In this document: positions 2,432 to 19,445 of the stretch, piece after piece
Position numbering within the stretch: position 1 is the stretch's first letter
Layout: each line of letters opens with the position of its first letter
Assembly: GCA_041483195.1 (NCBI GenBank)
Contig: JBGPFC010000001.1
Span: forward strand, 32,001 to 96,000
DNA from: Candidatus Eiseniibacteriota bacterium
GTDB lineage: Bacteria; Eisenbacteria; RBG-16-71-46
Length of the DNA stretch: 64,000 nt
Direction: 5' to 3'
The notes under the pieces: model-generated
What the model saw: only the letters and a program-made list of their open reading frames with translations
The model's database searches: none
Told to the model about the DNA's origin: nothing
Position numbers and translations under genes: made by a program

Positions 2432-2488
2432 TCAGCCCGCCGCCCTCCCCGCCACCGTCCCGCTGATCCCCGCCCATTGGAAATTGAA
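2432..2488 (-). repeat. Orphan copy of the 3' end of the HI0933-family gene (FNFQWAGISGTVAGRAAG*), att-like
   Basis: 42/54 nt identical to 18141-18194; frame and stop codon conserved; begins 5 nt after the CzcA stop. Confidence 0.9.
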
Positions 2489-2493
2489 CGCCA

Positions 2494-5400
2494 TCAATCC
2501 CTGGCTGGTTCGTGAGGCGTGGGAGTGACCTGCCGGCGTTTCCGATGTGTCAGCGCGTACAACGTCGGCAGCACCAGGAGCGTGAGCAGAGTCGAAGAGA
2601 TGATGCCGCCTATCACCACGGTCGCGAGCGGCCGCTGAACCTCTGCGCCGGTCCCGGTGGCGAGCGCCATGGGCACGAAGCCGAACGCGGCAACCAGGGC
2701 GGTCATGAGAATGGGCCTCAGCCGTCGCGTGCAGCCATCCAGGATCGCGAGATCGACGTCCAGACCGTCCATGACCCGCTGGCGGACGAAGGAGAGCAGC
2801 ACGAGACCATTGAGGACGGCAACGCCCGAGAGCGCGATGAAACCGATTCCCGCCGTGATCGAGAACGGCATGTGGCGCGTCGCGAGCGCGAGGACGCCTC
2901 CGGTCAGCGCCAGAGGCACGCCGCTGAAGACCACGAGCGCATCGCGTAATGAGCCGAAGGCGAGGACGAGGGAAACCAGCACCAGCACGAGCGCCATCGG
3001 CACGACGATCGCGAGCCGGTTGCGGGCCGTCACCAGATTCTCGAACTGCCCGCCCCATCCCAGCCAGTAGCCGGCCGGAATCGAAACTCTCTCGTCGACG
3101 CCCCGCCGAACGTCGGCCACGAATGAGGCGAGATCCCGACCCCGGACGTTCGCTTGCACCACGACGCGTCGCTTGCCGTTCTCGCGACTGACCTGATTCG
3201 GCCCTTCCTCGAGCCGGATGTGCGCCACGGTGCTCAAGGGCACGAACTCGATGCGCGATGCACCCGGCGCGGCTGAACCGTCATGGCCATGCCCCGCGAT
3301 TGGGATCGGCAGCAGTTCGAGCGCCGCCACATCACGCCTCGATGGCTCGGGCAGGCGGACCACGATGGGAAACCGCCGATCTCCCGCGAACAACTCCCCG
3401 GCCTGCGTGCCACCGAGTGCCGTCCTCACCACGTTCTGGACGTCGGCGAGGTCGAGCCCGAAGCGGGCCACCGCACGGCGGTCGATGTCGATCGCGAGTG
3501 AAGGCAGCCCCGTCACCTGCTCGACCTTGACGTCGGTGGCGCCCGGCACGGCTCGCACGATGCGCGCGATACGATTCGCGGTGGTGAGCATCGTGTCGAG
3601 ATCGTCCCCGAACACCTTGATCGCAAGATCGCTTCGCACCCCGGCGATGAGCTCGTTGAAGCGCATCTGGATGGGCTGGGTGAACTCGTATGCGTTTCCC
3701 GGGAGCACCGAAAGCCGCCGCTCCATCTCCTCCACCACTTCGGCCTTCGGCCGCCTGGGGTCCGGCCATTGCCGACGGGGCTTCATGATCACGTAAGTGT
3801 CGCCGGTGCTGATCGGCATCGGGTCGTTCGCGACTTCGGCGGTGCCCAGGCGCGCGAAGACTTCCCGCACCTCGGGCATGGTGGCGATCACCGCTTCGAC
3901 CCGGTGTTGCATGATCACGGCCTGATCGACGCTGATGCCGGGCATGCGCACCGGTTGAATCAGGATGTCCTGCTCATCGAGCGTCGGCACGAACTCGCCG
4001 CCGAGACGCGTCGCGAGCACCGTGCACGCCACCAGCAGCACGCCGGTGCCGGTCAGCACGACCGCTCGGTGCGCCAGCGACCACCGCAGCACCGGCACGT
4101 ACGCGTGGCGGACGCGGCGCACGACCGGGCTCTCCGTTTCGGCGAGGCGCCCGCGCAGCAGCAGCGCGGTCATGGCGGGCACGAACGTGAAGGCGAGCAG
4201 CAGCGCCCCGGTGAGCGCCAGGAGCACGACCTCGGCGAGCGGGCGGAACATCTTCCCCTCGATGCCGGCGAGCGTCAGGATCGGCAGATAGACGATCAGG
4301 ATGATCCCGGTCCCGAACAGCGTCGGGCGCGCGACTTCCCGCGCGCTGGAGTAGCTCAGGACGAGCCGCTCGGGGAGGGTGAGCACGCGCCCGACTTCCT
4401 GCTGGCGCTGGCTCAGCCGACGCAGGATGTTCTCGACCATCACCACCGCGCCATCGACGATGATGCCGAAATCGATCGCTCCGAGACTGAGCAGGTTGGC
4501 GCTGACGCGACCCTGCACCATTCCGGTCACCGCGAAGAGCATCGAGAGCGGAATGACCAACGCCACGATCAGGGCGCCGACCCAGTTCCCGAGCAGCGCG
4601 AACAGCACCGCGATCACGAGGATGGCGCCCTCGAGCAGATTCTTGCGCACCGTGTCGAGCGTGGCGTCGACGAGCCGCGTGCGATCGTAGACGGGCCTCG
4701 CCACGACCCCGGGCGGCAACGAGCGACCGACCTCCTTCAGGCGTTCTCCGACCCGCTTCGCGACCGCGCGGCTGTTCTCGCCGAACAGCATGATGGCCGT
4801 GCCGATGACCGTCTCCGCCCCGCGGCTGGTCGCCGCGCCGGTGCGCAGCTCCTGTCCAAGCCCGACCGTGGCGACATCACCGACATGGATCGGCACACCG
4901 CTGCGCGTGGCGACTACGATCCGCTCGATGTCGTCGGGAGACGACAATCGCCCGTCGGTATGGACGAGGTACTGCTCGCCCTTGTGCGGCAGGAAGCCTG
5001 CCCCGACCGCCTGGTTGTTGTGTTCCAGCGCGAGCAGCACGTCGTCCAGCGTGAGGCCGTACGCCCGCAGCTGAGCGGGATCGGGTTGCACGTCGTACTG
5101 CTTCCGGAACCCGCCGATGGTGTTGACCTCGGTCACGCCGGGAACGGTCCGGATCTGCGGCTTGATGATCCAGTCCTGGATCTCGCGAAGGTCGGTGGCG
5201 GTGTAAATCGTGCCGTCCGCCTTGCGCGCATCCGGCCGCGCTTCGACCTCCCAGTGGAAGATCTCGCCCAGCCCGGTCGCGATCGGGCCCATCATGGGTT
5301 CGGCGATGCCGCGCGGAAGGCTTTCCCGCGCCTCTTGCATGCGCTCGTTGACGAGTTGCCGGGCGAAGTAGATGTCGGTGCCGTCGCGAAACACCACCGT

Positions 5401-5715
5401 GACCTGCGAGAGTCCGTAGCGCGACAGCGATCGGGTCTCCGCCAGGCCGGGCAGGCCCGACATCGCGGTCTCGATCGGAAACGTGACCCGCCGCTCGATC
5501 TCCAGAGGCGGCAGGCCCTCGACGATCGTGTTGACCTGGACCTGCACGTTGGTGATGTCCGGCACGGCGTCGATGGGAAGACGGCGGAGATTGAAAATCC
5601 CAAGACCCGCAACAGCCGCGGTCACGGCCACCACCGCCCAGCGATGTGCGACCGAGAAGTGGAGTGTGCGTTCGAGCAGCGTGCGGGCCTCCGGCAGGTC
5701 CGAGTCAGTCTTCAT
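2494..5715 (-). CDS. czcA: CusA/CzcA-family heavy-metal RND efflux transporter
   Basis: 1073 aa; LPIDAVPDITNVQVQ, SLGAIDFGIIVDGAVVMVEN, RLRPILMTALVA, GAEVQRPLATVVIGG. Confidence 0.95.
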   Translation of the reverse strand: MKTDSDLPEARTLLERTLHFSVAHRWAVVAVTAAVAGLGIFNLRRLPIDAVPDITNVQVQVNTIVEGLPPLEIERRVTFPIETAMSGLPGLAETRSLSRYGLSQVTVVFRDGTDIYFARQLVNERMQEARESLPRGIAEPMMGPIATGLGEIFHWEVEARPDARKADGTIYTATDLREIQDWIIKPQIRTVPGVTEVNTIGGFRKQYDVQPDPAQLRAYGLTLDDVLLALEHNNQAVGAGFLPHKGEQYLVHTDGRLSSPDDIERIVVATRSGVPIHVGDVATVGLGQELRTGAATSRGAETVIGTAIMLFGENSRAVAKRVGERLKEVGRSLPPGVVARPVYDRTRLVDATLDTVRKNLLEGAILVIAVLFALLGNWVGALIVALVIPLSMLFAVTGMVQGRVSANLLSLGAIDFGIIVDGAVVMVENILRRLSQRQQEVGRVLTLPERLVLSYSSAREVARPTLFGTGIILIVYLPILTLAGIEGKMFRPLAEVVLLALTGALLLAFTFVPAMTALLLRGRLAETESPVVRRVRHAYVPVLRWSLAHRAVVLTGTGVLLVACTVLATRLGGEFVPTLDEQDILIQPVRMPGISVDQAVIMQHRVEAVIATMPEVREVFARLGTAEVANDPMPISTGDTYVIMKPRRQWPDPRRPKAEVVEEMERRLSVLPGNAYEFTQPIQMRFNELIAGVRSDLAIKVFGDDLDTMLTTANRIARIVRAVPGATDVKVEQVTGLPSLAIDIDRRAVARFGLDLADVQNVVRTALGGTQAGELFAGDRRFPIVVRLPEPSRRDVAALELLPIPIAGHGHDGSAAPGASRIEFVPLSTVAHIRLEEGPNQVSRENGKRRVVVQANVRGRDLASFVADVRRGVDERVSIPAGYWLGWGGQFENLVTARNRLAIVVPMALVLVLVSLVLAFGSLRDALVVFSGVPLALTGGVLALATRHMPFSITAGIGFIALSGVAVLNGLVLLSFVRQRVMDGLDVDLAILDGCTRRLRPILMTALVAAFGFVPMALATGTGAEVQRPLATVVIGGIISSTLLTLLVLPTLYALTHRKRRQVTPTPHEPARD

Positions 5716-6661
5716 CGCCGCCCGCTTCCTTCTCGAGTTCCGCCTTCAGCCAGAACGCGTTCCGGGTGACGATGCGCGCGCCGCGTTCGAGTCCCGTGAC
5801 GATCTCGGTCATCGTTCCGTCGCTTCGGCCCAGCGTCACGGGTTGTACCTCGAACCCGGACGAGTCGGCGCGGAATACGGCGGCGCCCGTGCCCACGCGG
5901 ACGATCGCGTCCTCCGGCACCGCCACCGGCACCGTGACGCGCTCGAGCACCACGACCGCGGTCACGAGGCGTCCGGGCTGCCAGCGGCCATCGGGGTTCG
6001 GAAGCACGACGCGCGCGTAGGTGGTGCGCGTATCCACGTCGAGCACCGGCCCGACGTAGCTGATCGTGCCGGACGCCGAGGTCGCCGGCCCCCCCGCCGC
6101 CCGCACGTGGACGCGTTGCCCACTTCGAATCCTGCCGAGTTGCTCCACGTAGATCGGAACGTCGAGCCATACGCTGGACAGATCCGAGACCGTGTACAGG
6201 ACCGACCCCAGGTCCACCGCCGCTCCAGGGCTAGCCGGGCGAGCGACGATCGTCCCGCCCATCGGGGCGGACACGACGTAGCCGCTGAGGCTCTCATTGC
6301 TCAGGATCTCGGCCAACGGCTGCCCGCGGGAGACGCGGCTCCCCAGCTCCGCGAGCAACGTCGTCACGCGACCCGGGTAGGTCGGCCGCACATCGACGCT
6401 GCGCTCGGCGTTCAACTTGATCTCGCCCGGCAGCTCGAGGGTGACGTCGGTCGGCTGGGCCCCGGACCTGCCGACGGCGATCCCGGCGCCGCGGACCGCC
6501 TCGGGCGACAGAGTCACGAGGGCCCCGCCATGCGATCCGGTGCGCGGCGCTGCCTCGTGCTCGGCGACCTCGGGCGGCTGCTTCGCGCAGCCGGAAACGG
6601 CCATTGCGTGCGCCAGCAGGACGGCCGTCAGCAGAGTTGCTGTTCGCCATGGGCGGTTCAT
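5705..6661 (-). CDS. czcB: RND periplasmic adaptor (CzcB/CusB-like), probable lipoprotein
   Basis: Lipobox-like VSGC, biotinyl-like halves, DTRT motif; overlaps czcA start. Confidence 0.9.
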   Translation of the reverse strand: MNRPWRTATLLTAVLLAHAMAVSGCAKQPPEVAEHEAAPRTGSHGGALVTLSPEAVRGAGIAVGRSGAQPTDVTLELPGEIKLNAERSVDVRPTYPGRVTTLLAELGSRVSRGQPLAEILSNESLSGYVVSAPMGGTIVARPASPGAAVDLGSVLYTVSDLSSVWLDVPIYVEQLGRIRSGQRVHVRAAGGPATSASGTISYVGPVLDVDTRTTYARVVLPNPDGRWQPGRLVTAVVVLERVTVPVAVPEDAIVRVGTGAAVFRADSSGFEVQPVTLGRSDGTMTEIVTGLERGARIVTRNAFWLKAELEKEAGGDED

Positions 6662-7947
6662 CGCGCCTCCTTCGGGGTGAGAAGCCCGGTGCCCGCCAGG
6701 AACTCGAGCCGCAAGTGCGCGCGCCAGAGCTCGGCCTGTGCGTCGATGAGCGCGAGCTCGGTGTCGAGCAGGTTGGATTGCTCGGCAACGAGATCGAGGT
6801 AGCTCGACCGACCCATTCGATAGCCGCGGAGCAACTCGTCGACGATCTGCTCACGGGCCGGACGCACGCGAAGACGGAGGGTGTCGTAGACGGCAGCGGC
6901 GGCCTTGATACGCTCCGCGGCGACCACGAACGAAATCTGAAGTCGCTGCTCCGTCGCTCGTCGTTCGGTTGTGGCCGCCTCGAGCTCGCGATGCGCCGCG
7001 GTGACGCCGCCACCCCCTCGGTTCCAAAGGGGCAGCGGCACTTCAGCCCCGACCAGGAATCCGCTGCCCTGCACTTCTTCGAGGCGTCTCACACCGCCAG
7101 ACAACGTGAGGTCTGGACTCCGGGCCGCGGCCGCCGCCTGCACGCGGGCGGAAGCGATGGCTTCGGTTGCCGCGGCGCGAGTCAGCTCGGGATGCGCCGA
7201 GAGCCGGGGCCACCATCCCGCGGTGTCGCTCGGCAGCACCTGCTCGGGGGCGACCAGGGAGTCGAACGTGGCCGTCACCGCGCCCCAGCTCAGGGCGAGC
7301 TCCCGGCGAGCAACAGTCAGATCCGACTCGGTGCGCTGACGCTCCACCGCTTGCGTCGTCGCCCGACTCTGCGCGCGCAGAATTTCCAGACGTGGTGACG
7401 CGCCGGCCTGAAATCGTTGCGTCGCCGCACGGATGGCTTGCTCGGTGAGCGCCTCGCCTTCCCGCAACCGTCCGAGTCGGGCCTGAAGCGACCACGCCGC
7501 AATGAATCGGTCCGCGGCCTGAGCCAGCGCGTCGCGACCGATCGTGCCCGCCTCGGCACTCGCGAGCCTGGACTCCGCCTCGGCAAGCCCCAGGCGCGCG
7601 CTTCGGTCGCCTCCGATCTCGAAGACCTGGCTGATGGCCATTGTGGCCTCTCGATGGCTCGCACCGAGTTGCCCGCCGAAGTTTTCCTCGGTCGCGTTCA
7701 GAGTCGGGTTCGGACGACGGCCGGCATCCCCGACCCGTGCGCGTGCGGCCTGAGCCCGCAGACCGGTCACCTGAAGCGTCGGTCCGTATCGGCTCGTGAG
7801 CGTGAGCGCACGTTCGAGGGTCAGGGGACCGGAAATGGCGGCGATGGTGTCCGGCGGCATGGGTGCCGCGATCGCCGTGGCCCGCGATGACACGAGAGCC
7901 ACGAGCATGATCGCGCAGCGGCAGCCGGCTCTCACGATTGAGAGCAC
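6658..7947 (-). CDS. czcC: TolC/CzcC-family outer-membrane efflux protein
   Basis: PNPTL, LPLWNRG and GRSSYLDL motifs; lies upstream of czcB/czcA; exact start uncertain. Confidence 0.9.
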   Translation of the reverse strand: MLSIVRAGCRCAIMLVALVSSRATAIAAPMPPDTIAAISGPLTLERALTLTSRYGPTLQVTGLRAQAARARVGDAGRRPNPTLNATEENFGGQLGASHREATMAISQVFEIGGDRSARLGLAEAESRLASAEAGTIGRDALAQAADRFIAAWSLQARLGRLREGEALTEQAIRAATQRFQAGASPRLEILRAQSRATTQAVERQRTESDLTVARRELALSWGAVTATFDSLVAPEQVLPSDTAGWWPRLSAHPELTRAAATEAIASARVQAAAAARSPDLTLSGGVRRLEEVQGSGFLVGAEVPLPLWNRGGGGVTAAHRELEAATTERRATEQRLQISFVVAAERIKAAAAVYDTLRLRVRPAREQIVDELLRGYRMGRSSYLDLVAEQSNLLDTELALIDAQAELWRAHLRLEFLAGTGLLTPKEAR

Positions 7948-8029
7948 GGAATGATCTCCTTCGAGCTAGAGGGTCCGACCGTGGGTGCACGAATTCGTGC
8001 GCCGTCTCAGATTCGGGCAGCTCGAGAGA

Positions 8030-8410
8030 TCAACAGCGGAGGATGGGAAAGTGCTTTCCGGGAGGTTCGCCGGCCCAGAAGCGACGGGCCCCGACAAGAG
8101 GCGCGGCGACGGCAGCTACATATGGTGTGACGAGCGGCAGAGCCGTCGTCAGCGCGCCGCGAGCCGCCGGCGCGATGCTCCTCAAGGCGGTGAACACCTC
8201 GTCCCGACACGGCCCACACTCCGCCGTTCCGGTCGCGCCGATCGTCGCCTCAGAATCACAGGTGGGCAACACCATGCATGCGCAGAATCCCGGCTCCAGC
8301 TTCTCGACCCCGTCTGCGGAGATGCAGACGGAACCGCTCGCCAGCGGAGGCATGACGATGAGCAGTTGGAGGAGCGCGAGCATTCGGGTGGGCCACTTCG
8401 GTGCGCGCAT
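8030..8410 (-). CDS. Small Cys-rich exported protein upstream of the RND operon
   Basis: Signal-like N-terminus; VCISADG, CAC and CGPCRD motifs; position typical of small accessory genes before czcCBA. Confidence 0.5.
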   Translation of the reverse strand: MRAPKWPTRMLALLQLLIVMPPLASGSVCISADGVEKLEPGFCACMVLPTCDSEATIGATGTAECGPCRDEVFTALRSIAPAARGALTTALPLVTPYVAAVAAPLVGARRFWAGEPPGKHFPILRC

Positions 8411-8486
8411 GGGTTCTCGACATTCGTGGAAATGCCGGCGCCGGTCAAGCTCGGGGCCGTCGCGGCAATCGTCGCTCGTGGGTCGA

Positions 8487-9047
8487 TCAGTCTCCCTCGA
8501 CGACAGGCAGCCCCTGGTCGATCCAGTCGTGCTGGAGGTTCTTGGCGATGTTGAGAACCCGGACGTCCGTGAATCCTATCTTGCGCGCGGCCCGAAACGC
8601 CGGGCGTACGTTGGGACAGTCGGCCCAGGGGCAGCAGCCGCAATACAACACCACCGCCTGCTCTCGCGGAATCTTCCGCAGTTCCTGCTGCAAGGCCGCC
8701 AATCCCTCCGGCTTCGAGGCGGGCCCAATGAACCGTGACCCCGGAATGTGTCCGGCTCGGAACAACACCTTGAACCCGACCTGCAGCACCACCGGTCGCT
8801 TTGCTGTCGTGTCGGCGAGGGCTCGCGCGAGGGCTTCGGGTTGGATCAGCTGCCCGGGCTGCGGCGGATCGGTGAGGCTCGACGCCAGGCGCAGCGAGTC
8901 CTCACCGCCCCGGGCTCGCGGGCCGGGTTCGCCGAAGACGGGGCGGTTGATCAGGGCGGGCAGGGCTATGGCGACAGCGGCCAGAGCCCCGAGCAAGACC
9001 GCGTGCAGGCGTGCGCGGAAGGATCGCGCGGACTCGAGGGCCGTCAC
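8487..9047 (-). CDS. Exported or membrane-anchored rhodanese-like domain protein
   Basis: GHIPGS and YCGCCPWADCPN motifs; GTG start overlaps the upstream stop (GTGA). Confidence 0.8.
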   Translation of the reverse strand: MTALESARSFRARLHAVLLGALAAVAIALPALINRPVFGEPGPRARGGEDSLRLASSLTDPPQPGQLIQPEALARALADTTAKRPVVLQVGFKVLFRAGHIPGSRFIGPASKPEGLAALQQELRKIPREQAVVLYCGCCPWADCPNVRPAFRAARKIGFTDVRVLNIAKNLQHDWIDQGLPVVEGD

Positions 9048-10201
9048 ATCCAGCCTCGGAGCCAGGATTGCTCCAGCAGCACCTTGCCGAGGTGCCATCG
9101 GCGGGATGGCTTGTCCAAGGACACGGCAGGCAACGGCTCGGCGTAGAAATTGCCCTTGCCGAAGCCGGCCTTGCCGTCTCCCGTTTCGACGAAACACTCG
9201 CCGAAGCCGGTGAAGCGAGCCTCTTCTCCTCGGCCGGTGATGGCTCGCGCGATGTTTTTCGCAACCACCTGGGCCGCGAAGTGAGCGAAGACACCCGCCT
9301 TGGGCAGTGGCTTGCCCAGCTTGAGCGGGACCGAGTTGACGTCCCCGATGGCGTAGACGTTCGGAACGCGCGTCACGAACGTGTTGCGATCCACCTCGAT
9401 CCAGCTCCCTTCCGCGCACAGTCCCGAGTCGCTCACCACGGAAGGCACGTGGTGCGGTGGAACGAATCCGAGCATGCCGTAGGACGCGGCCGCGCCGTTG
9501 GAGAAGTGGATGCTGCGCGCGGCCGGGTCGACACGAGTCACCTGATGCTCGGGTCGATAGTTGATTCCCTTGCCCTCGACCATCTGACGAACGGCCGCAG
9601 AGACGTGGGCCCCCGCCACGCCCATCGGGCCGGGCTCCGCGGTGAACATGTCGACCTGGACATGCTCGCGCACACGCCGCGCACGGCAGGCGGCCTCGAC
9701 CAGCATCGCGGCCTCATACGGCGCGGCCGGGCAGCGATAGGCCGGCGCCGCGGTGAGGATCACGACACGGCCACTGCGCAGCGAGGCAAGCTGGTCGCGG
9801 AAGGCACTCGCTCCTGCGAGGGAGTACAGATCGTGGCCGCCGTCGACCAGACCGGGGATCGCGCTCGCGGCCGTGGCGGCGCCAAGCGCGATCACGATGT
9901 GGTCGGCACTCGAGGTTCGGCCCGCCACCACGACCTCGCGTCGGGCGGCATCGATCCGTTCGATCTCGCCCGTCGTCACCGTCACGCCGCGGTGGACCAG
10001 CCGCCGCAGCGGCCGTGAGATCTGCTCCGGACGGCGCGCCCCGACCAACAGCCAGAGCAGCGACGGCGCGAAGAGGAACGTCTCCTCACGGTTGACGAGG
10101 ACAAGCTCGTGGGTCGCGGGGAGGCGCTTGCGAAGGTCGTTGGCGACCACGATCCCGCCGACTCCACCACCCAGCACGAGAACGCGCTGCGTTCCTCCCA
10201 C
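9044..10201 (-). CDS. Sulfide:quinone oxidoreductase / FCSD-like FAD-dependent oxidoreductase
   Basis: GGGVGG Rossmann motif, YRCPAAPYE, VYAIGD, LPKAGVFA, GECFVE; GGAGGAG RBS. Confidence 0.88.
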   Translation of the reverse strand: MGGTQRVLVLGGGVGGIVVANDLRKRLPATHELVLVNREETFLFAPSLLWLLVGARRPEQISRPLRRLVHRGVTVTTGEIERIDAARREVVVAGRTSSADHIVIALGAATAASAIPGLVDGGHDLYSLAGASAFRDQLASLRSGRVVILTAAPAYRCPAAPYEAAMLVEAACRARRVREHVQVDMFTAEPGPMGVAGAHVSAAVRQMVEGKGINYRPEHQVTRVDPAARSIHFSNGAAASYGMLGFVPPHHVPSVVSDSGLCAEGSWIEVDRNTFVTRVPNVYAIGDVNSVPLKLGKPLPKAGVFAHFAAQVVAKNIARAITGRGEEARFTGFGECFVETGDGKAGFGKGNFYAEPLPAVSLDKPSRRWHLGKVLLEQSWLRGWM

Positions 10202-10215
10202 GTCTCCTCCCTCGA

Positions 10216-10575
10216 TCAGAAAACGAGCACCTGTTCGCTCGTCGCCGTCCACTCGGTGAGCTCGTCCATCGAGCCTCGGTGCGCGCCCTCGACCAGTTCT
10301 TCCGTCGCGATCCCGCGCGCGTCCATGCAGCTGCCGCAGACCCCGACTGCACCGCCGCGCTTCGTCACGGCGGAGAGCATGTGCTGCACGTTGTAGTAGC
10401 CGGCCGGAACCCGCTGGTTGGCCTTCGCGGCGGAGGCGCCATCACCCAGCAGGAACACCTTGACGCTGACGTTGTCCCGGCGGGCGAGCGACCCGGCGAG
10501 CCGAAGCCCGTTGTACACCCGCTCGCTGCCATAGGGAGCGTCGTTGAGTACGATCAGAAAGCTCGATGCGCTCAT
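10216..10575 (-). CDS. DsrE/YchN-family sulfur relay protein
   Basis: APYGSER..NGLRLA, FLLGDG and CGSCMDARG motifs. Confidence 0.9.
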   Translation of the reverse strand: MSASSFLIVLNDAPYGSERVYNGLRLAGSLARRDNVSVKVFLLGDGASAAKANQRVPAGYYNVQHMLSAVTKRGGAVGVCGSCMDARGIATEELVEGAHRGSMDELTEWTATSEQVLVF

Positions 10576-11253: not shown

Positions 11254-11257
11254 GGCT

Positions 11258-12043
11258 CTACTCCGGCTTGAGCGCGGTCATCATGACGGCCTTGACCCCA
11301 TACGCTTCAGCTGAGTTCTGCGTCGACTCCTTGCGGAACCGAAACCGCGGGACGACCGCGGATCGGACACGCGTGAAACCGGACTCCTCGAGCAGCCGGA
11401 ACAGCTCTCCCTCCGGGAGAGCGCCGCCGATTCAGCTGGCCCAGAGTTTGGGATCGTTGACGATCGATTGGGAAAGCTGCTTGGCGCTCACGATGTCGGT
11501 GATCGAAATGCGACCGCCCGGCCGGAGCACGCGAAAGATCTCCTCGACGACCCGGCGCTTACGGAACGAGAGGTTGATCACTCCATTGGAGATGACGACA
11601 TCCACCGAGGCCGCGGGCACCGGGATGTCCTCCATGCGCCCGACCTTGCATTCCATCCGGGTCCCGTTCTCTGCCGCGTGCGCCTGGACCTTGAGGCACA
11701 TCGCGGGGTTGAGATCGACACCGATGACCCTGCCGCTTGGGCCAACGCTCCAGGAGGCGATGATCGCGTCGAGGCCAGCCCCGCTCCCGAGATCGAGCAC
11801 CGTCTCTCCCGGCTGCAGGTTGCTTCGCTCGTGCGGATTGCCGACGCCGGCGAACGAGTCGACGGCGCTCGCGGGCGCGCGATCGAGCCACTCTGGCGAG
11901 TAGCCGAACAATTCCGCCGCCTCGCGGCCGTGGAAGAAGTGGAAGGTGCCCTTCGGGTTGTCGGCGACTTCCTGATACATGCGGACGATCTCGTCCTTGA
12001 GCACCGCCTCCAGAGAGGCCTGCGCGTCGACGGAATCAGTCAT
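11258..12043 (-). CDS. ArsM-like SAM-dependent methyltransferase, predicted selenoprotein (UGA=Sec at 11432-11434), 261 aa
   Basis: VLDLGSGAGLD and DVVISNGVINL; in-frame TGA in LWAS*IGGAL, the ArsM WxxCxxGA position; frame stays open 57 more codons to a TAG 4 nt before the next ATG; GGGGGGAG RBS. Confidence 0.88.
11400..11431 (-). promoter_or_regulatory. Bacterial SECIS-like hairpin
   Basis: Just 3' of the UGA: GCTCTCCC-GGA-GGGAGAGC, an 8-bp stem extendable by GU pairs; apical loop starts with G 18 nt after the UGA. Confidence 0.75.
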
Positions 12044-12138
12044 GTCGTGACTCCCCCCGTTCGTGTCCACGAGATCGGCGTGAGATTCGCGCCGCGGCAT
12101 GGCGATCGAGCCCAGGCCGTTCGATCCCTGCTCCTCAA

Positions 12139-12162
12139 GTATTCAAACGTGTACTTGAATAC
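12139..12162. promoter_or_regulatory. Candidate ArsR-family operator, perfect 8-8-8 inverted repeat GTATTCAA-N8-TTGAATAC
   Basis: AT-rich palindrome ~95 nt upstream of the methyltransferase/ArsR operon. Confidence 0.7.
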
Positions 12163-12194
12163 CATGCGGACGACGGGTGAGTCAAGCGAGCCGG

Positions 12195-13403
12195 CTAGAA
12201 CATCGGGGTCGGCACGCGCCCCCACCCGGTGCCCGGACCCAGAGGATGGATGTCCAGCAGCACGAGGTTGTGGATGTCCACGTCCGCGAAGAACTGCGGC
12301 TCGCGGGTCGTGTTGATGCCGAAGAGTTGCGCGGGGGTATCGGCCGGCCCGGCGGAATCGATGCGCAGGAAGATCAGCCGGCGGACGACGTCCCCCGGGG
12401 GAGCATTCGGGGCCGACATGCCCGCCATGTCGTGGTGCATCATCGTGTGGCCGCCCTGCAGGTGCCGGAACGGGTGAAAGATCCAATCGGAGATCATCGC
12501 CAGCGTCTGGTGGTGCTGGTAGAGCCGCCACTGCGGCCCGATGTCTGCGATCATCCCCTGCATCACGTACTGCGGGGGCATGAGGTAGACGAGGATGGGC
12601 CCGGTCGTTTGCGAGAGGCGCGACTTCACTTCCGGCAGCTCGAGAACGTCGGCCATCCGGTGCTCGAGCATCATCGCGTCGCCCGGCAGGATGGTCATGG
12701 CCGTGACCCTTCCCTCCGACCACAGTGGCAATCGCGCGATCGTGAATGCGCGCAGGGCGAACGCGCTCCCGACGGCGACCGCGATCAGCAGGATGAAGCC
12801 GACCAGGGGCCGCAGCGCCGGGAAACCCGGCAGCGGCACGCGATCCACGGCCTGCTCCAGCGCGCGCGGGCAGAACCGGCCCGTCCGCTCCATGTAGTCG
12901 CGATACTGGTCGCCGAACTGGTTCAGCATCCGCCGCTCCTCGTCCATCGCCAGCAGGTAGTAGAGCCCGACCATGACGGTCCAGAGGACGACGGTGAGAA
13001 ATCGCGGCCACAGGATGGCCAGCCCGATTCCGGTGAGCGCGAGCGCGACGTATTGCGGATGGCGAATCCAGCGGTAGAGGCCGCCCAGCGCGGGGCCGCG
13101 ACGCAGGAACTGGTGGAAGTAGACCTGCGCCGCGCACGCGAGGAACACGACCGTTCCGCCCACGAAGAGCACCGAGCCCGCGACCCGGACGGCCTTGAGC
13201 ACGATCCCCGGGGGAAGCACCATGTGCGGCATGAAGAACGACGCGAGCCAGCGCGTTGCCGGCGAGTGGGCGAGGAAGAGCAGGAACGGGTTGAAGGCCG
13301 CGTAGAAGAACGCAGCGAACGGGCTGATCATGATCAGCACCTCGAGCGCGATGATGAAGTACAGGACGATGACGCCGCCGAACAGCGGGCGCGACTTGTT
13401 CAA
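12195..13403 (-). CDS. Isoprenylcysteine carboxylmethyltransferase/PEMT-like membrane protein with C-terminal soluble domain
   Basis: GLYRWIRHPQY and DEERRM..FGDQYRDY motifs, several TM helices, His/Met patch; TTG start after AAGGAGGAG. Confidence 0.75.
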   Translation of the reverse strand: MNKSRPLFGGVIVLYFIIALEVLIMISPFAAFFYAAFNPFLLFLAHSPATRWLASFFMPHMVLPPGIVLKAVRVAGSVLFVGGTVVFLACAAQVYFHQFLRRGPALGGLYRWIRHPQYVALALTGIGLAILWPRFLTVVLWTVMVGLYYLLAMDEERRMLNQFGDQYRDYMERTGRFCPRALEQAVDRVPLPGFPALRPLVGFILLIAVAVGSAFALRAFTIARLPLWSEGRVTAMTILPGDAMMLEHRMADVLELPEVKSRLSQTTGPILVYLMPPQYVMQGMIADIGPQWRLYQHHQTLAMISDWIFHPFRHLQGGHTMMHHDMAGMSAPNAPPGDVVRRLIFLRIDSAGPADTPAQLFGINTTREPQFFADVDIHNLVLLDIHPLGPGTGWGRVPTPMF

Positions 13404-13432
13404 GGATCTCCTCCTTCGGAACTGATCCGCTC

Positions 13433-13927
13433 CTACTTCGACTTTCTTCGCCGGCCGTTCTGGAGCCTCGCGAGCGCGTGCACGTGCCTGCGAATCGGGG
13501 CCTGCTGCCCCCAGCTTTCGAGCAACCGGGCAGGCCTGCCTCTCGGCGTGCGCGCGAGCCTCGCATCCCACTCCCCGAGCATCGTGCGCATCTGATCGCG
13601 CAGCAGCGCGAGGTCCCGGAGCTGGGCTTCGATGGATTCGAGCTTGGCGGCGGCCAGGGCTCGCACCTCGCGGCAGGGCGTTCCACCACGGTCCCTGATG
13701 CGCATGAGCCGCGCGAGCTCGTCGAGCGTGAATCCAACCGCGAGAGCGCGCTGTACGAGGTGGACGCGCCCGGGCGCCTGCGCGTCGTACTCGCGGTAGC
13801 CGTTCGGCGAGCGGCGCGACGCGAGCAGCCCCTTGCGCTCGTAGTGGCGCAGGGTGTCCTTGCTGAGCCCGGTCTTGCGGGCCAGCTCCCCCGCGCGCAA
13901 CGGACCGGGCGGTCCATCTTCGCTCAT
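13433..13927 (-). CDS. MerR-family transcriptional regulator
   Basis: LRAGELARKTG..DTLRHYERKGLL..NGYREY..GFTLDE..PCREV. Confidence 0.92.
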   Translation of the reverse strand: MSEDGPPGPLRAGELARKTGLSKDTLRHYERKGLLASRRSPNGYREYDAQAPGRVHLVQRALAVGFTLDELARLMRIRDRGGTPCREVRALAAAKLESIEAQLRDLALLRDQMRTMLGEWDARLARTPRGRPARLLESWGQQAPIRRHVHALARLQNGRRRKSK

Positions 13928-13934
13928 GGGCCGG

Positions 13935-13966
13935 ACTCTAGACCATGGAACTCATTCCATGGTCAA
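13935..13966 (-). promoter_or_regulatory. MerR-type promoter/operator: -35 TTGACC, 20-nt spacer, -10 TAGAGT, with perfect dyad GACCATGGAA-N4-TTCCATGGTC
   Basis: Long spacer with internal dyad is the MerR hallmark; ATG lies 7 nt after the -10. Confidence 0.85.
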
Positions 13967-13997
13967 GGGCTCAGATCCGCGCTGGCGCTGAGCTGAT

Positions 13998-15407
13998 CTA
14001 CCTGGCTACGACGAGCTTCTGTATCCGCGAGACGTCCCTTGCCTGCATCCGGACGAAGTACACGCCCGACTTCAGGGGGCGACCGTCCGAATCCCTGCCA
14101 TCCCACGCGAGCACATGCTCACCGGCTGACTCGGCCCGATCCTGCAGCCGGATCACTTCGCGCCCCGCGATGTCCACCACCGCCAATCGCGCACGGCCCG
14201 CGCCGGGCAGCGCGTAGCGCAACGTCGCGCCGGCGTACGTCGGATTGGGCTCGGGCGCGCGCAACTCGAAGCCGCGCGCCGGGGCGAGCGCCTGCTCCAC
14301 CGCGGTCACAGGCGCGGGCGTCAGCACCATGGCCCGAGTGAAGGTCGTACGGAGCGCATCGCCCACGATCTGGCCCGCGTCGTTGATCTCGTCGGCATAC
14401 GTGAGGACGTACCCGGTGCCCGGGGCGATCAGGGAGTTGAGATCCTGCGGCGGGCCGCTCGCCGAGAACAGCGTCGCGCGCGATGCGTCGCCGGGGAGCG
14501 TGGAGTACCCCACGATTTCACCCGACCCATTGATTCCGAGCGCCTAGCTGCTCAGTGCACCGTCGAGCATTCCCAGATCGGTTGCCGAAAGTCCCACCCA
14601 GAGAGTCGCCCGCGACTCGCTCCCCGACTTGGAATAGCCGACGACATCGCCCTGGTTGTCGACGCCGATCGCGTCGGATTCCGAGAATCCTGCCAGTGGT
14701 GGAAGCTCGTCGATACTCGTCCCATGCAGCCTGAACCCACGAATCTGCCCCAGCATGTTGGCTCCGTAGCCGCAAATCTCGGAGCCGTCGTTGGAGATTG
14801 CGCTGGCCACGCTGAAGTAGCCCCCCAGGTTGGGCAGGAACGCGCTCGACCCTTCGCTCCATTTCATGGCGTGCCCCGGGCTGCTGACACACTGGGGGTA
14901 GCCGCAACCGCTCGTGAGATTGGTCCAGCCCACGACCACTCCCGAGTCCGAGATGCTGTAACCGTACGAGTCGCCCGCACCGGCCGGCTTGGGAAGGTCG
15001 AGGAGAGCCCCGCCGGGCGCCTGATGGGCGGCCGTGGCGAATCCGTTGGACTGCGTCAGCCCGAAACCGCACAAGGCCCCGTCGCTGTTCACGTCGGTCG
15101 CGGCACTGAGGAGCGAAACCACGAGCGCGCCCTCGTCGGTCATGCCGCCGGAGCTGGTCCAGCGGAAGACATGGCCTGCCGAACCATCGGTGGCGGCCCA
15201 GCCGACCACCAATCCGGCATTGTTGATTCCGGTCGCTTCAGACGTGCCGGTCGTGTCGGTTCGTAGCGTGCCGAGAACAGTGAGGTCGTACGACGAGGCT
15301 TCTGCCCTCGCTGCCGACAAGGCAAGCAGGCATATCATCGGGCAAAGAACTCGGGTGGATTTGTTCGGAGCGGGCTGTGAACCCGGGCTCAAGCCTCGAG
15401 CGATCAT
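13998..15407 (-). pseudogene. Secreted HAF-repeat protein with FlgD-Ig/T9SS-like C-terminal domain, split by an in-frame TAG at 14544-14546
   Basis: Repeats SEATGINN, SAATDVNS, SVASAISN, S*ALGING; the two ORF halves share a frame; GAGGAGG RBS before 15407; tail WDGRD..GVYFVR..KLVVAR. Confidence 0.75.
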
Positions 15408-15583
15408 TGGGGGCGGCCTCCTCGTGGCGATGGCGCGAGTGACGCGGGTGACGATCATATCAGTGGTGCCCGCGGGCATTGATGAGAAAATGTCGGCGCC
15501 CTGGCCCAATCCGCTCGAGATCGAAGCGGAACACGTGCGGCGAAGGAGGAGCCAGGCGGCGCGCAAGTCGATGCGCTTGTGAA

Positions 15584-15643
15584 TCACTGCCCCGCGGCCC
15601 GCCCCGCCTGCGTCCCGCTCGACCACGCCCACTGGAAGTTGAA
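15584..15643 (-). repeat. Orphan copy of the 3' end of the HI0933-family gene (FNFQWAWSSGTQAGRAAGQ*), att-like
   Basis: 50/60 nt identical to 18135-18194; same start junction; stop conserved. Confidence 0.92.
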
Positions 15644-15902
15644 TGCTGGCCAAACTCCGAGACTACGTGTCGCAATCGGGCACAAGGTGCTGCTATCGGA
15701 GACCTTGACCGCAAGGGCGTGCGACCGATCGCGACCCACGATGGTCGTTGTTGCCCGATGGTTCTCGCACAATTCTGGCACAGCCCAAAGCTGCGTCCTC
15801 GGCCATCGGGGACTGCGCCCGGCTCGTCCTGCACCTAGAAGGATCTGCCCCGGCCGACCATGTGATGCAGAGTTCACGGTCGGTCCTGCGGCTCCTCCTC
15901 CC

Positions 15903-17999
15903 TCAGGGAGCTACCATGAGAACGTCTTGAATCTTGCGCACCCGGATACCAGAATCCGATCGCCTTCCTGTCCGGACATCGACAACGGCAAGCGCACCTT
16001 GTTCGAGGATCAGCACCCGATCGCGATCGAGCCAGCCGACGAACTCGGCATGCTCCGCGCGCCACAAGGTGGACGGGATCGGATCCAGGGCATCCACTTC
16101 CGCCACGGGAAGTTCGGCGAGACTCGCCTTGACCCGCCGCAGCTCGAGGCTATCCGGAGGCTCGTCGGCCGATGCATGCAGCGTTCCGTCACCACGGATC
16201 GTGAAACCGATCGCCCGCCGGTCGGGAGCGGGGGCGAGATTGTCGGTGAAGAAGCTCACGTCGCTGTGCTCGTTGTGATAGCGGGGCCACTCGTCGAAGA
16301 ACACGACTTGGACGCCTTGGCGGACGATCCACGACTGGTTGGAGTTCTCGTTCGACCACCCACAGCATGCGAAGTCTCCGATCGAACCGATCTGGGTCTC
16401 GCCTCGATCGAAGTAGAGCTGCGCTGAGCGCTCCCCTCTTGATCGCCAGCCCGCTTGAGTTCGGACGAACAGAGTGTTGGCGCCCTCGGCTTGCGCGACG
16501 GAGCCTTCGGATCGAGTCGCGCGTGGGACCATTCGATCAAGCACGAAGAAGCTGTCCACGACTCCGTTCGATGCCACGACCCCGGCCTCTTCGCACGGTT
16601 CGGTCAATGCGGCGACAGGGGACGGATTGTCCTCGCAGCGCTCGTAGGGCAGGTCGAAAATAGCGTGACGCGGCTTTAGGTCGAAGTCCGTCTCCTCGAA
16701 GCGTGCCGCGTTGTAGGCGCTGTCGACGTCCAGTGCGCCCTGCCAGGAGATCGTCGAGGTCTCCAGCAGGAACGCGCTGCTATCGGCGGCGCCCAGGTAC
16801 CACTTGCGATCGCATGAGCCGCGCAAGAGGTATGAAGCGTTGGGAGATCGTGTGCGCTGTCTCCAGCTCGCGCCGTCCCAGATCCACACGCTGTCCCGGG
16901 TGACGGGGATGAGCAGCTGTCCGCGCCGATTCACGAGAATTCGAGCCGGATCTACGAAGGCGAAGTCAGGTATTCCCACGCCGCCGAGGCGCTCGAGGGC
17001 GGCTGAGTACGCGACAAGGTGATTCGGCGCCTCCGCCACCCAGAGGCGAGCCTCGGTCGCTCGCGAGCCAACACCGACTTCATTGAACGAGTAGCCGACG
17101 CGCTGCAGAGTCGGCGGGGTCGCGTACCATTTGTGATTTCCGATCCGGACTCCGTACCGGAATAGGTGCGGCCTGAGGCCTCCGTCTGGTTCGGCTATGG
17201 CCTGACTAACAACGGAGACGATCACCACGCGCTTGTTCGGCCCGACACGGATGGTCGAGGGCTTGGTCGAAGCGGCCTTCGGGTAGAGCGCGAGCGGTTC
17301 CGGACCTGAGCGAGGTCGACCATCGCAAGCCTCAGGGCCGATCGCAGCGACCTCTCGCTCGATCAAGGCCCATTCGCGCACGCCCTGAGGAACTGCGGGT
17401 TCGAATTTGATCGCCCCGTTCCGGATACGTGGTTCCAGAGTCGCCGGGTACTCGATGCAGTCCACTCTCGAGGTCCCCTCGACGAATTGAGACTTCGAAG
17501 GATCCCAATCCAGAACCACCCAACCACTGCTGGCGATGGAATGCGGCGAAGCGAAATGGATGTACTGCCTTCTTTCGCAGGCGGCGGTTGACGCGCATGG
17601 CACCAGTTGTGCGGTCACGATCAGCATGAGACCGTCGCGCCATGGCGCGCTATCCACATGCAGGCGGGTGCATCGCAGGCCGAGGTTCGCGTCATACCAA
17701 GCGACTCCGCCCTGCGAGTTTGGAATCGAGATTCCCCGGTATTGACGGGGTTGCGCCTCGTCCTTCGCGCCTTCGCCACATGAGTCTCTGGTCCAAACGG
17801 CGCGAACGATCACCGAGTCCCCGCGGAACACGCCTCGCCAGATCGACCCGACCGCCTCTTCGGGCTCACCGGCCCAGCGCGTAGCGGAGGCAGGTGCGAT
17901 GAACGCCGACAGCGCAAGCAGACCGATCGCGACCCTCGTCCAGCGGACGAGTGGATCGAGAGAGGCGGATGAAGCGAATCGAAGTGGATCCACCCTCAC
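15903..17999 (-). CDS. Hypothetical exported protein (698 aa)
   Basis: Long ORF with signal-like N-terminus; less GC-biased codons than flanking core genes; no family recognised. Confidence 0.6.
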   Translation of the reverse strand: MRVDPLRFASSASLDPLVRWTRVAIGLLALSAFIAPASATRWAGEPEEAVGSIWRGVFRGDSVIVRAVWTRDSCGEGAKDEAQPRQYRGISIPNSQGGVAWYDANLGLRCTRLHVDSAPWRDGLMLIVTAQLVPCASTAACERRQYIHFASPHSIASSGWVVLDWDPSKSQFVEGTSRVDCIEYPATLEPRIRNGAIKFEPAVPQGVREWALIEREVAAIGPEACDGRPRSGPEPLALYPKAASTKPSTIRVGPNKRVVIVSVVSQAIAEPDGGLRPHLFRYGVRIGNHKWYATPPTLQRVGYSFNEVGVGSRATEARLWVAEAPNHLVAYSAALERLGGVGIPDFAFVDPARILVNRRGQLLIPVTRDSVWIWDGASWRQRTRSPNASYLLRGSCDRKWYLGAADSSAFLLETSTISWQGALDVDSAYNAARFEETDFDLKPRHAIFDLPYERCEDNPSPVAALTEPCEEAGVVASNGVVDSFFVLDRMVPRATRSEGSVAQAEGANTLFVRTQAGWRSRGERSAQLYFDRGETQIGSIGDFACCGWSNENSNQSWIVRQGVQVVFFDEWPRYHNEHSDVSFFTDNLAPAPDRRAIGFTIRGDGTLHASADEPPDSLELRRVKASLAELPVAEVDALDPIPSTLWRAEHAEFVGWLDRDRVLILEQGALAVVDVRTGRRSDSGIRVRKIQDVLMVAP

Positions 18000-18134
18000 A
18001 GTATCGTCCGCAGGCCCGCTCCAGCTGAGTGCGGTGCTCGGCCCGCTGGTCCCGCCCTCATTTGTGGCCGCACCTTCGCAGGCCGGCGGGAACAGGTTCT
18101 CGGACCCCGGTTCCCCATGGCTCGCGATCGCGCC

Positions 18135-19445
18135 TCACCGCCCCGCCGCCCTCCCCGCGACCGTTCCGCTCGACCAGCTCCACTGGAAGTTGAACCCCCC
18201 GAGCCGTCCCTCCACGTCGAGGATCTCCCCGCACAGGAACACGCCGCTCGCCTTGCGCGACTCGAGCGTGCTCGGATTCACTTCGTCCAGCGCGACGCCG
18301 CCCGCGGTCACCTCGGCCTTCTCGTAGCCGAGCGTTCCCGTCACCTGCATGGGACGCGCGATCACGAGCCGCAGCAGCGCCGCGCGCCGCGCGCGCTCCA
18401 CCTGCGCGAGCGCCGCGGCCGGGGTCACGCCGGCCTCCGAGCACAGCTCGCCCGCGAGCCGGTCGGGCAGCGCGCGTCCGAGGTAGCGCCGCACGCTCGC
18501 GCGCGGATCGCGCGAGGCCTCGAGCCACGATGCGAGCAGCGTCGCCTCGGTCTCATCCGGCAGGAAGCTCGTGCTCACGAGCCGCTCGCCCTCGCCCTCC
18601 GCGCGATGCCAGTGCCGCGACAGATCGAGCGCGGCGGGCCCGGAGTATCCGAAGTGGGTGAACAGGAACGAGCCGCGCGTCGCCGCGAGCTTGTGTCCCC
18701 CGGCACGCAGCGTGAGCGCGACCTCGAGCGTGACGCCCTGCAACTTCTCGCACAGCGGATCGCTCGAGGTGAGCGGCGTGAGCGCCGGCACCGGCGGCAC
18801 CAGCGTGTGGCCGAGCGACTCGGCGAGCGCGTAGCCGGTGCCGTCGCTCCCGGTGCGCGGAAACGAGAGCCCGCCGGTCGCGAGCACGATCGCGTCGGCC
18901 TCGATCCATTCGTCGGGCTCGATCGCGGGCAGCGGCCAGTGGGTCGCGCCCTGCGCCGCGACCGCCGCGCCGAACGCCGCGGCATCGCGCACGTTCTGGA
19001 TGCCGATCCGCCAGCGCGGCGGCACGATGCGCGGCGCCCGCTCGATCCGCACCGCGCGCGCGCCGCACCGGATCGTCACGCCCGCGCGCTCGCACGCCGC
19101 GAGCAACGCGTCGAGCACAGTGCGTGCTTCGTCGGTCTCTGGGAAGTACTTTCCGGTGGGCTCGAGCTTGAGCGCGACGCCCAGCGACTCGAGCCACGCG
19201 CGCGACGCCTCCGCGGGAAACGCCGCGAGGATGCGCCGCACCACCGCGCGCGAGCCGCCGTGGAAGTCGCGCTCGTCGACGCTCGCGTGCGTCACGTTGC
19301 AGCGGGTGCCGCCCGACATCAGGATCTTGAGCCCGGGCCTGGGGTGCGCGTTGAGCAGCGTGACGCGCGCGCCGGCCTCCGCCGCGCGCAAAGCTGCGGT
19401 GAATCCCGCGGCGCCCGCGCCCACCACGCATACCTCGCGGTTCAA
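18135..19445 (-). CDS. HI0933/BaiN/YhiN-family flavoprotein (aminoacetone oxidase family)
   Basis: GAGAAG, KILMSGGTRCNVT, LATGGLSFPRTGSDGTGY, FTHFGYSGPA, VTAGGV, GEILDVEGRLGGFNFQWSWSSG. Confidence 0.95.
   Translation of the reverse strand: MNREVCVVGAGAAGFTAALRAAEAGARVTLLNAHPRPGLKILMSGGTRCNVTHASVDERDFHGGSRAVVRRILAAFPAEASRAWLESLGVALKLEPTGKYFPETDEARTVLDALLAACERAGVTIRCGARAVRIERAPRIVPPRWRIGIQNVRDAAAFGAAVAAQGATHWPLPAIEPDEWIEADAIVLATGGLSFPRTGSDGTGYALAESLGHTLVPPVPALTPLTSSDPLCEKLQGVTLEVALTLRAGGHKLAATRGSFLFTHFGYSGPAALDLSRHWHRAEGEGERLVSTSFLPDETEATLLASWLEASRDPRASVRRYLGRALPDRLAGELCSEAGVTPAAALAQVERARRAALLRLVIARPMQVTGTLGYEKAEVTAGGVALDEVNPSTLESRKASGVFLCGEILDVEGRLGGFNFQWSWSSGTVAGRAAGR

Follow-up and report, generated by a model that had tools for sequence, protein, structure and literature searches.

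The 3' end of a flavoprotein gene recurs in the DNA behind it

The DNA studied here, a window of 64,000 nucleotides from a Candidatus Eiseniibacteriota bacterium (assembly GCA_041483195.1, contig JBGPFC010000001.1, positions 32,001 to 96,000), contains a gene for an HI0933-like flavoprotein whose 3' end is repeated twice in the DNA that follows it. The gene (18135..19445, reverse strand) encodes a 436-aa flavin adenine dinucleotide (FAD) flavoprotein of the aminoacetone-oxidase family, with matches to PF03486 (E 2.1e-69, residues 4-432 of 436 covered) and TIGR00275 (373.6 bits, with a cut-off of 183.8). Its last 19 codons, which encode part of the Rossmann domain, form tail 1 together with the stop codon (18135..18194, reverse strand). 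Along the direction of the gene, tail 1 is followed by 135 nt, an open reading frame (ORF) of 698 aa, a conserved segment of 140 nt that we call the element arm, tail 2 (15584..15643, reverse strand), a 13.1-kb block, tail 3 (2432..2488, reverse strand), and a gene for an AAA_22/SPOR protein. These tails bound a 2.5-kb module 1 and a 13.1-kb module 2. We label this genome G000, with the window on its contig C1, and its relatives in the family with labels such as G001 and G008; all are metagenome bins. We consider it highly probable that integrative elements with a tyrosine integrase use the 3' end of this gene as their chromosomal attachment site (attB), and that both modules are stacked, integrase-less derivatives of such elements that resemble cis-mobilizable elements (CIMEs). 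Tail 1 would then comprise the core of a left attachment site (attL) and a replacement gene end, tail 2 a displaced gene end and the core of the right attachment site (attR) of module 1, and tail 3 the displaced native gene end, now partly decayed.

A first-pass annotation, made from the sequence alone, had reported the recurrence of the gene end, and ungapped comparison with the last 60 nt of the gene returned the same counts, with 50/60 nt identical in tail 2 (encoding FNFQWAWSSGTQAGRAAGQ and a stop) and 42/54 nt in tail 3 (encoding FNFQWAGISGTVAGRAAG and a stop, with W-to-G and S-to-I changes). As it had also noticed, similarity begins at one base in all three copies (TTCAAC or TTCAAT) and each copy retains a stop codon; its statement that many of the differences are synonymous was generous, although three of the six codons that differ between tails 1 and 2 are indeed changed synonymously. 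In the 60-nt flanks on both sides of the three copies, identity is at background level (12-21/60). The search of the genome with the 60-nt tail that the annotation had proposed found only the three copies in 4,169,095 bases (E 3.9e-25 for the self-match, 1.0e-11 for tail 2, and 2.2e-7 for tail 3), the next best match having an E value of 0.03, and a hidden Markov model (HMM) of the tail recovered the same three copies in G000 and no others. Three co-oriented copies of the target's 3' end, with no others in the genome, thus flank the inserted DNA as direct repeats, and the intact gene stands on one side. The annotation had also raised the possibility of chimeric assembly. Logan contigs from other sediment metagenomes span every tail with 0 differences (X3 1500-2679, X3 14435-15680, and X5 16836-18860), and because these independent contigs bridge each copy, the tails are not mis-assembled. 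In G008, an orphan tail, separated from the gene, shares 90% identity with tail 1 over 60 nt. The bodies of the two flavoprotein genes are only ~72% identical, and the closer match of the tail fits its arrival with module 1; we infer that tail 1 is a replacement 3' end brought by that module.

Module 1 carries a single gene, the 698-aa ORF (15903..17999, reverse strand), which encodes a protein with a hydrophobic N-terminus and no family match in Pfam or NCBIfam; its G+C content at third codon positions (GC3) is 0.72, compared with 0.93 for the host gene. The module's P-arm-like element arm (15644..15785, reverse strand; E 3.5e-31 with an HMM of the arm) ends in ...GCCAGCA at the junction and bears the repeat TGTGCCAG-N4-TGTGCGAG. 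Module 2 (2489..15583, reverse strand) consists of cargo only, as judged with Pfam and NCBIfam. From the end nearest the flavoprotein gene, and all on the reverse strand, it encodes a HAF-repeat protein (within 14544-15653), a T9SS-sorted protein (13998-14513), an isoprenylcysteine-type methyltransferase (12195-13571), an ArsM-like methyltransferase (11432-12100), an ArsR-rhodanese regulator (10576-11253), a DsrE-like protein (10216-10575), an SQR-like flavoprotein (9044-10252), and the outer membrane protein (OMP; 6658-7947), adaptor (5705-6661), and CusA/CzcA pump (2494-5715) of a metal RND efflux system. The stop codon of the pump gene (2494-2496) is 5 nt from the junction with tail 3 (2488). 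A 625-aa ORF at 12040-13917 on the reverse strand, rich in Arg, Pro, and Ala, was rejected as a wrong-frame artefact, the real gene being that of the isoprenylcysteine-type methyltransferase. Beyond tail 3, the backbone gene for a protein with an AAA_22 ATPase and a SPOR domain (317..2323, reverse strand; Pfam) marks the end of the hotspot, and on the other side the flavoprotein gene is preceded by genes for an EamA transporter and an MBL-fold protein.

The division into co-oriented modules of 2.5 and 13.1 kb that the first-pass annotation described is borne out: when genes in the DNA between the tails are called with a GC3 criterion, 12/12 lie on the strand of the host gene. It had recognized no integrase in either module, and the searches here agree. 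Pfam and NCBIfam identified no recombinase or transfer domain in the 12 genes of modules 1 and 2, and neither a whole-genome scan with PF00589 nor tblastn with the integrase described below found a match on contig C1. Both modules therefore have a feature characteristic of CIMEs, in that they are bounded by tails and lack genes for integration or transfer.

The same gene end is occupied across the family

Orthologues of the flavoprotein gene are present in 31/41 relatives. A 15-nt pattern, TTYAAYTTYCARTGG, occurs in 21/41, and a reversed control pattern in 0/41. Further co-oriented copies of the tail lie behind the orthologous gene in G001, G004, G008, and G022. When the arm and tail were used together as a query, 59/89 family genomes gave matches; counts for the family are lower bounds and this one is a floor, because nine candidates were scored per genome. 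Arrays of two to five co-oriented tails behind the gene, each within a single contig, are present in at least 14/89 genomes (G000, G001, G003, G004, G008, G011, G022, G041, G051, G055, G059, G063, G074, and G083), and in G013, G017, and G075 the array is interrupted by a contig break. The unpublished genome G026 enters only the tallies of orthologues, of the 15-nt pattern, and of orthologues of the backbone gene, and no claim depends on it.

Modules at this site range from 1.4 kb to ~40 kb; the most distant orphan tail found in G046 is ~91 kb from the tail of the gene. Synteny is retained upstream of the gene, and downstream of it every genome compared has different content. The gene order is therefore not fixed, and the variable modules match what the first-pass annotation had expected behind HI0933 orthologues. 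It had likewise expected orphan tails to share one starting point and not to begin at random positions. Among the 27 orphan tails that were read, some of them located with an nhmmer profile of the tail, similarity starts at TTCAAY in 23, and in the remaining four that spot carries mutations. Directly before 20/27 stands the ...GCA of the element arm, where the gene itself has ...GG(G/A), and most orphan tails retain both frame and stop codon. Cassettes in the relatives are not consistently co-oriented.

Two relatives show apparent rearrangements at the site. In G059 (L053, G059:C12), the 3' half of the gene is present twice: a 672-nt second copy (13935-14606 vs 2725-3396), 96.7% identical and with its own tail, lies 10.5 kb behind the intact gene and is followed by a 1.3-kb module with an arm and then by a tail 96% identical to the gene's present tail. 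The arrangement resembles the product of a more extensive, homology-based duplication at this site. In G011 (L046, G011:C25, ~1609-1746), an arm lies inverted 1.3 kb behind the gene together with the initial 15 nt of the core (TTCAACTTCCAGTGG), and the similarity stops directly after CCAGTGG. This may be a scar left when the recombinase inverted the DNA, and its endpoint hints at a crossover within those 15 nt.

A tyrosine integrase of one clade lies beside the site in relatives

In G017, a gene for a 353-aa tyrosine integrase (PF00589, E 1.5e-18) lies ~140 nt behind the tail of the flavoprotein gene and is convergent with it. An integrase 71% identical to that of G017 occupies the same place in G022, where it heads a 40-kb island. 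Integrases at least 70% identical to that of G017 are encoded in nine family genomes, and in all seven cases that could be read (G017, G022, G044, G046, G054, G075, and G087) the gene is 110-175 nt behind the HI0933 tail; in the other two, contig ends cut off the surroundings. The proposal to look for recombinases next to such tails was thus productive, with a single clade found in 7/7 readable cases. The islands in these cases span about 19 to 91 kb. Integrases at most 56% identical (G001, G008, G011, G055, and G061) are on other contigs, and PF00589 has no match on the array contigs of G000, G001, G004, G008, G041, and G063. In G054 (L064, G054:C4, 997-2036), the integrase gene is frameshifted and split between two frames (residues 1-75 and 76-347), which shows an island in the course of losing its integrase.

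The island of G022 (L041-L043, G022:C1:1558621-1598956) encodes a primase-polymerase/AAA_25 protein, an HTH_17 protein, an SNF2 helicase, RmuC, a 1729-aa Eco57I-type methylase, a 1829-aa DEAD/MZB helicase, a HerA-like DUF87 protein, and an insertion sequence (IS) DDE transposase. Its cargo is of the defense type.

Modules and integrase-bearing islands share an element arm

Orphan tails are preceded by an arm of ~140 nt with the pattern CTGTGTCAGAAYTGTGCGAGAACCATCGG ... GTCGCGATCGG ... GTGCCCGATCGCGAC ... GCCAGCA, followed by TTCAAC. The arm is present both in integrase-bearing islands (G017, G022, G046, and G004 at 35076) and in integrase-less modules (module 1 of G000, three in G008, and others in G004, G055, G059, and G074), and the arm of module 1 aligns with 12 arms from nine other genomes, integrase-bearing islands included. 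Module 2 has no arm, so its kinship to the integrase-bearing elements rests on its tails. Between the tail and the integrase gene, a double TGTG motif (TGTG..-N3-4-TGTG..) recurs in G017 and G022, in the way that the arm-type binding sites of lambda-type integrases recur. BLAST with a word size of 7 found no counterpart of the integrase-proximal arm of G017 or G022 downstream of the tails in small modules.

RNAalifold predicted no common fold for 13 arms with their cores (0 pairs, 0 kcal/mol). The reverse complement of the arm also gives weak matches to the arm profile (E 0.0027 to 0.0001), at 15647-15739 on the forward strand of the window and in arms of G008 and G059. The match reflects an inverted GTCGCRATCGG / CCGATYGCGAC pair ~45 nt apart, which may be the binding site of a dimeric accessory protein.

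The same element family has a second target in G000. On contig C5 (149317-151931), outside the window, a smaller array lies behind an intact tRNA-Leu(CAA) gene and consists, in order, of the tRNA gene, a 2.1-kb module, an arm (151390-151517, E 8e-14), a duplicated tRNA 3' end (from ~151545), and a fragment of an integrase gene that encodes its C-terminal part (151728-151931, reverse strand). The occurrence of the same arm type at this second site means that the arm is a feature of the element family, whatever the target.

The outermost tail is oldest and cassettes are shared between genera

From a point 33 nt inside tail 3 onward, G000 is 83.5% identical over 1074 nt to contig C99 of G013. On that contig, an AAA_22/SPOR orthologue that is 79% identical follows a decayed tail, which itself has an arm before it. 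Since the same junction exists in another genus, tail 3 and the AAA_22/SPOR gene belong to the old backbone and tail 3 is the displaced native end. In G000, G003, G004, G008, and G074, the outermost tail also shows the heaviest damage, in the form of substitutions, a frameshift, or a stop codon within the frame, a gradient that supports insertion at the gene-proximal site with the youngest element nearest the gene. An empty site, in which the flavoprotein gene directly abuts the AAA_22/SPOR gene, was found in no genome; orthologues of the AAA_22/SPOR protein closer than 50% occur only in G013 and G007, on contigs other than that of the flavoprotein gene.

Individual cassettes recur in different genera. 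The copies of a module encoding TetR-like and DUF418 proteins in G055 and G008, two genomes of different genera, share 97.7% identity over 1931 nt; those in G055 and G004 share 90.9% over the 2453 nt that reach from one junction to the other. The adjacent host gene is only 68-77% identical in these comparisons. The module occupies array position 1 in G008 and G055 and position 2 in G004, and its neighbors differ each time. A HigB/HigA module is directly behind the gene in G011 and G001 and third in G008; homology between its copies in G008 and G011 (85% over 691 nt) begins 1 nt before TTCAAC. The occurrence of the DUF418 cassette in three genomes of two genera at 91-98% identity lends indirect support to the idea that such modules may be transferred with an adjacent functional element. 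In G004 (L039, G004:C4, 6550-6705), the DNA that separates a complete orphan tail from the DUF418 cassette consists of ~95 nt and then the remnant of the distal end of a second tail. This 155-nt piece is also found in G055 and is absent from G008, and is possibly an almost fully deleted module.

A model for accretion and loss of the integrase

These observations suggest how the array could have formed. The attachment site of an element would consist, in order, of the arm, the core TTCAACTTCCAGTGG followed by the element's own last codons and stop (a spare tail), and an integrase-proximal arm, and would recombine with the end of the gene. Because the element site carries its own tail, integration would rebuild the gene with that tail and move the old one to the far end of the element. 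Later arrivals would insert at the rebuilt gene end and produce a stack with the youngest element next to the gene, and loss of the integrase side would leave modules with an arm, core, and tail. In the window, module 1 would have kept one gene and its arm, while module 2 would have kept genes related to sulfide, metalloids, and metal efflux and lost its arm, with the original gene end behind it. An incoming element could excise alone and leave the modules in place, or could take them to a new host by way of the distal arm-plus-core site. Modules by themselves would be stuck, becoming mobile again only when an integrase-bearing relative lands beside them and joins the site at the gene to one of the distal arm-plus-core sites by recombination. 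Accretion, loss of the integrase, and composite excision would together explain the integrase-less arrays, the conserved arms, the presence of cassettes at different positions, and the gradient of decay. The crossover presumably lies within TTCAACTTCCAGTGG, the arm may bind the integrase, and the modules may still be mobilizable at present, although the array of G000 is probably inert unless a new element arrives.

The first-pass annotation had proposed that the gene end is a repeatedly used attB-like site, where elements supply a replacement tail and displace the old one, and the variable modules and TTCAAY junctions of the relatives bear this out. Among the mechanisms that it offered, a recombinase acting from elsewhere stands, in the form of the island-borne tyrosine integrase of the relatives; an integron-like process does not, and homology-driven capture is unnecessary.

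Several observations weigh against this model. G000, which is 96.8% complete, contains no intact integrase of the clade, tblastn identifying only fragments on C5, C20, and C77, so any activity in G000 would be hypothetical. No TGTG repeat was found in the 135 nt behind tail 1, and module 1 is therefore without the integrase-proximal arm. The arms of small cassettes form a subgroup apart from those of integrase-bearing islands, and among the arms aligned no integrase-bearing element has the exact cassette-type arm. Neither the arm profile nor alignment detects an arm in module 2, whose right end is rebuilt or truncated exactly up to the core. In the DUF418 cassette, the left tail in G008 differs from that in G004 and G055, whereas the right tail travels with the cassette. 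No joint of one attachment site to another, as expected from an empty site or a circle, is present among the 15 of 78 contig joints listed, which have sides of 20-27 nt; contigs drop rare forms, so this result carries little weight either way.

Among the alternatives, the one that fares best is that the integrase-less modules are a true cassette system, in which arm-plus-core units are moved singly by an integrase acting in trans and which functions like an integron with double-stranded, lambda-type sites. In its favor, modules of one or two genes with well-conserved arms and no integrase on the contig occur in many genomes, one and the same cassette can occupy different array positions beside different neighbors, and orphan tails are mostly in frame with a stop codon. 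However, the varied positions and neighbors are explained equally well by transfer of a cassette with an integrase-bearing element that then excises alone. In addition, the small modules lack the integrase-proximal arm repeats, no IntI-like gene lies beside the site in any genome examined, cassette orientation is inconsistent in the relatives, and the 15 of 78 joints listed include no excision product. We regard this explanation as distinctly unlikely.

A scenario without any site-specific recombinase, in which the tails are traces of homologous recombination or of duplication involving diverged alleles of the gene end and were acquired along with foreign DNA, is very improbable. A shared segment of 45-60 nt can seed some exchange, and the 672-nt duplicate of G059 (96.7%) shows that larger homology-based events do occur at the locus. 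Against this scenario stand a single starting base in 23/27 orphan tails, the element-specific ...GCA before 20/27, a specific integrase clade beside the site in 7/7 cases, and the same element family at a tRNA-Leu gene.

The gene yhiN of Escherichia coli is probably a member of the HI0933 family. Tn6230, a Tn7-like transposon, is reported to target the yhiN att site of E. coli (PMC10121019, PMC11406308, PMC8417528), and a Tn7-like or other transposon could home to the flavoprotein gene end in the same way. The 142 module ORFs scanned contain no TnsA/B/C or TniQ domain, the repeats are diverged gene ends of 45-60 nt and not short target duplications, and the gene that accompanies the site encodes a tyrosine integrase, leaving this alternative a negligible chance. 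Chance similarity or an artefact, for which one might cite the high G+C content and metagenomic assembly of the genome, has practically no probability and is already refuted by the genome-wide E values (1e-11 and 2e-7, with no further copies), the reversed-pattern control (0/41), and the independent metagenome contigs that bridge all three junctions with 0 differences.

Significance and comparison with known systems

The last 19 codons of an aminoacetone-oxidase/HI0933-family flavoprotein gene are an integrase target for which we found no earlier report, and the integrase clade and attachment-site anatomy for that target are identified here in a phylum known only from metagenomes. Searches of the literature, with subscription journals outside their coverage, found no paper that links HI0933 with an integrase integration site or Eisenbacteria with an integrase, and for yhiN with genomic islands and integrases they found Tn7-like cases only. 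Together, TTCAACTTCCAGTGG and the arm provide a simple marker for islands of accessory genes in Eisenbacteria genomes, where the cargo at this site includes defense systems, toxin-antitoxin pairs, and genes related to metals, metalloids, and sulfide. The locus also offers a natural series, from the full island through the frameshifted integrase and the arm-only cassette to the bare scar, that shows how integrase-less cassettes originate. We think it rather unlikely that the small modules are not dead remnants but a working cassette pool in which each arm-plus-core site is under selection and each module carries a functional spare gene end. If they did, visiting island-borne integrases would shuffle, capture, and export modules individually, and the end of the flavoprotein gene would be an integron-like capture platform with lambda-type, double-stranded sites that is shared across genera.

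Integrons resemble the arrays described here in that small, often single-gene cassettes without an integrase are arrayed at one site. The junction ATTCAAC even fits RYYYAAC, the inverse core of integron sites. An integron was nonetheless rejected: no IntI is encoded beside the site, there is no foldable attC (0 predicted pairs among 13 arms), the arms contain direct repeats, and cassettes have no fixed orientation in the relatives.

Stacking of elements in tandem, with some members lacking an integrase, has been described before (PMC5704250, PMC3146451). A close parallel is with the ICESt1/ICESt3-type integrative and conjugative elements (ICEs) of Streptococcus thermophilus, for which tandem accretion and CIMEs are described at the 3' end of fda (PMC5704250). 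In both systems the 3' end of a coding gene serves as attB and is restored by the element, decay of the integration genes leaves modules flanked by attachment sites, and the arrival of new neighbors produces tandem arrays, which are cis-mobilizable in the system described (PMC5704250) and may be so in Eisenbacteria. The target gene, phylum, and integrase clade differ here, arrays reach four or five members, and no conjugation genes were recognized. Conjugative transfer of CIME-ICE tandems is reported in that review (PMC5704250), whereas cis-mobilization is a proposed step here.

In Dehalococcoides, tandem islands lie behind the single-copy gene ssrA with direct repeats of its 3' end and an integration module next to attL, and 15 islands without an integration module were proposed to be cis-mobilizable (PMC3146451). 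There, the enzyme is a serine recombinase (DsiB), the repeat measures 20 bp, and the target is an RNA gene (PMC3146451). In contrast, the elements at the flavoprotein gene have a tyrosine integrase, a 45-60-nt coding tail that must keep the protein functional, and a conserved 140-nt arm. The tycheposons of Prochlorococcus, as described in a preprint (bioRxiv 10.1101/2020.12.28.424599), share with these elements a tyrosine recombinase, repeated insertion at one site with older elements pushed inward, and fragmented integrases and partial target copies as marks of older events. Tycheposons target tRNA genes, whereas the main target here is protein-coding and tRNA-Leu is used by a sister lineage within G000.

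Tn6230 and the elements here are alike in that each homes to the downstream end of a gene, probably of the same flavoprotein family. The machinery is unrelated: Tn6230 uses a transposase and target selector and does not replace the gene end, in contrast to the tyrosine integrase of the Eisenbacteria. The reported Tn7-like homing to yhiN hints that this gene end is a convergent safe harbor. The kind of hotspot is already known; the Eisenbacteria arrays differ from the systems described before in the gene that is targeted, in phylum and integrase clade, and in the 140-nt arm that even tiny cassettes have kept well.

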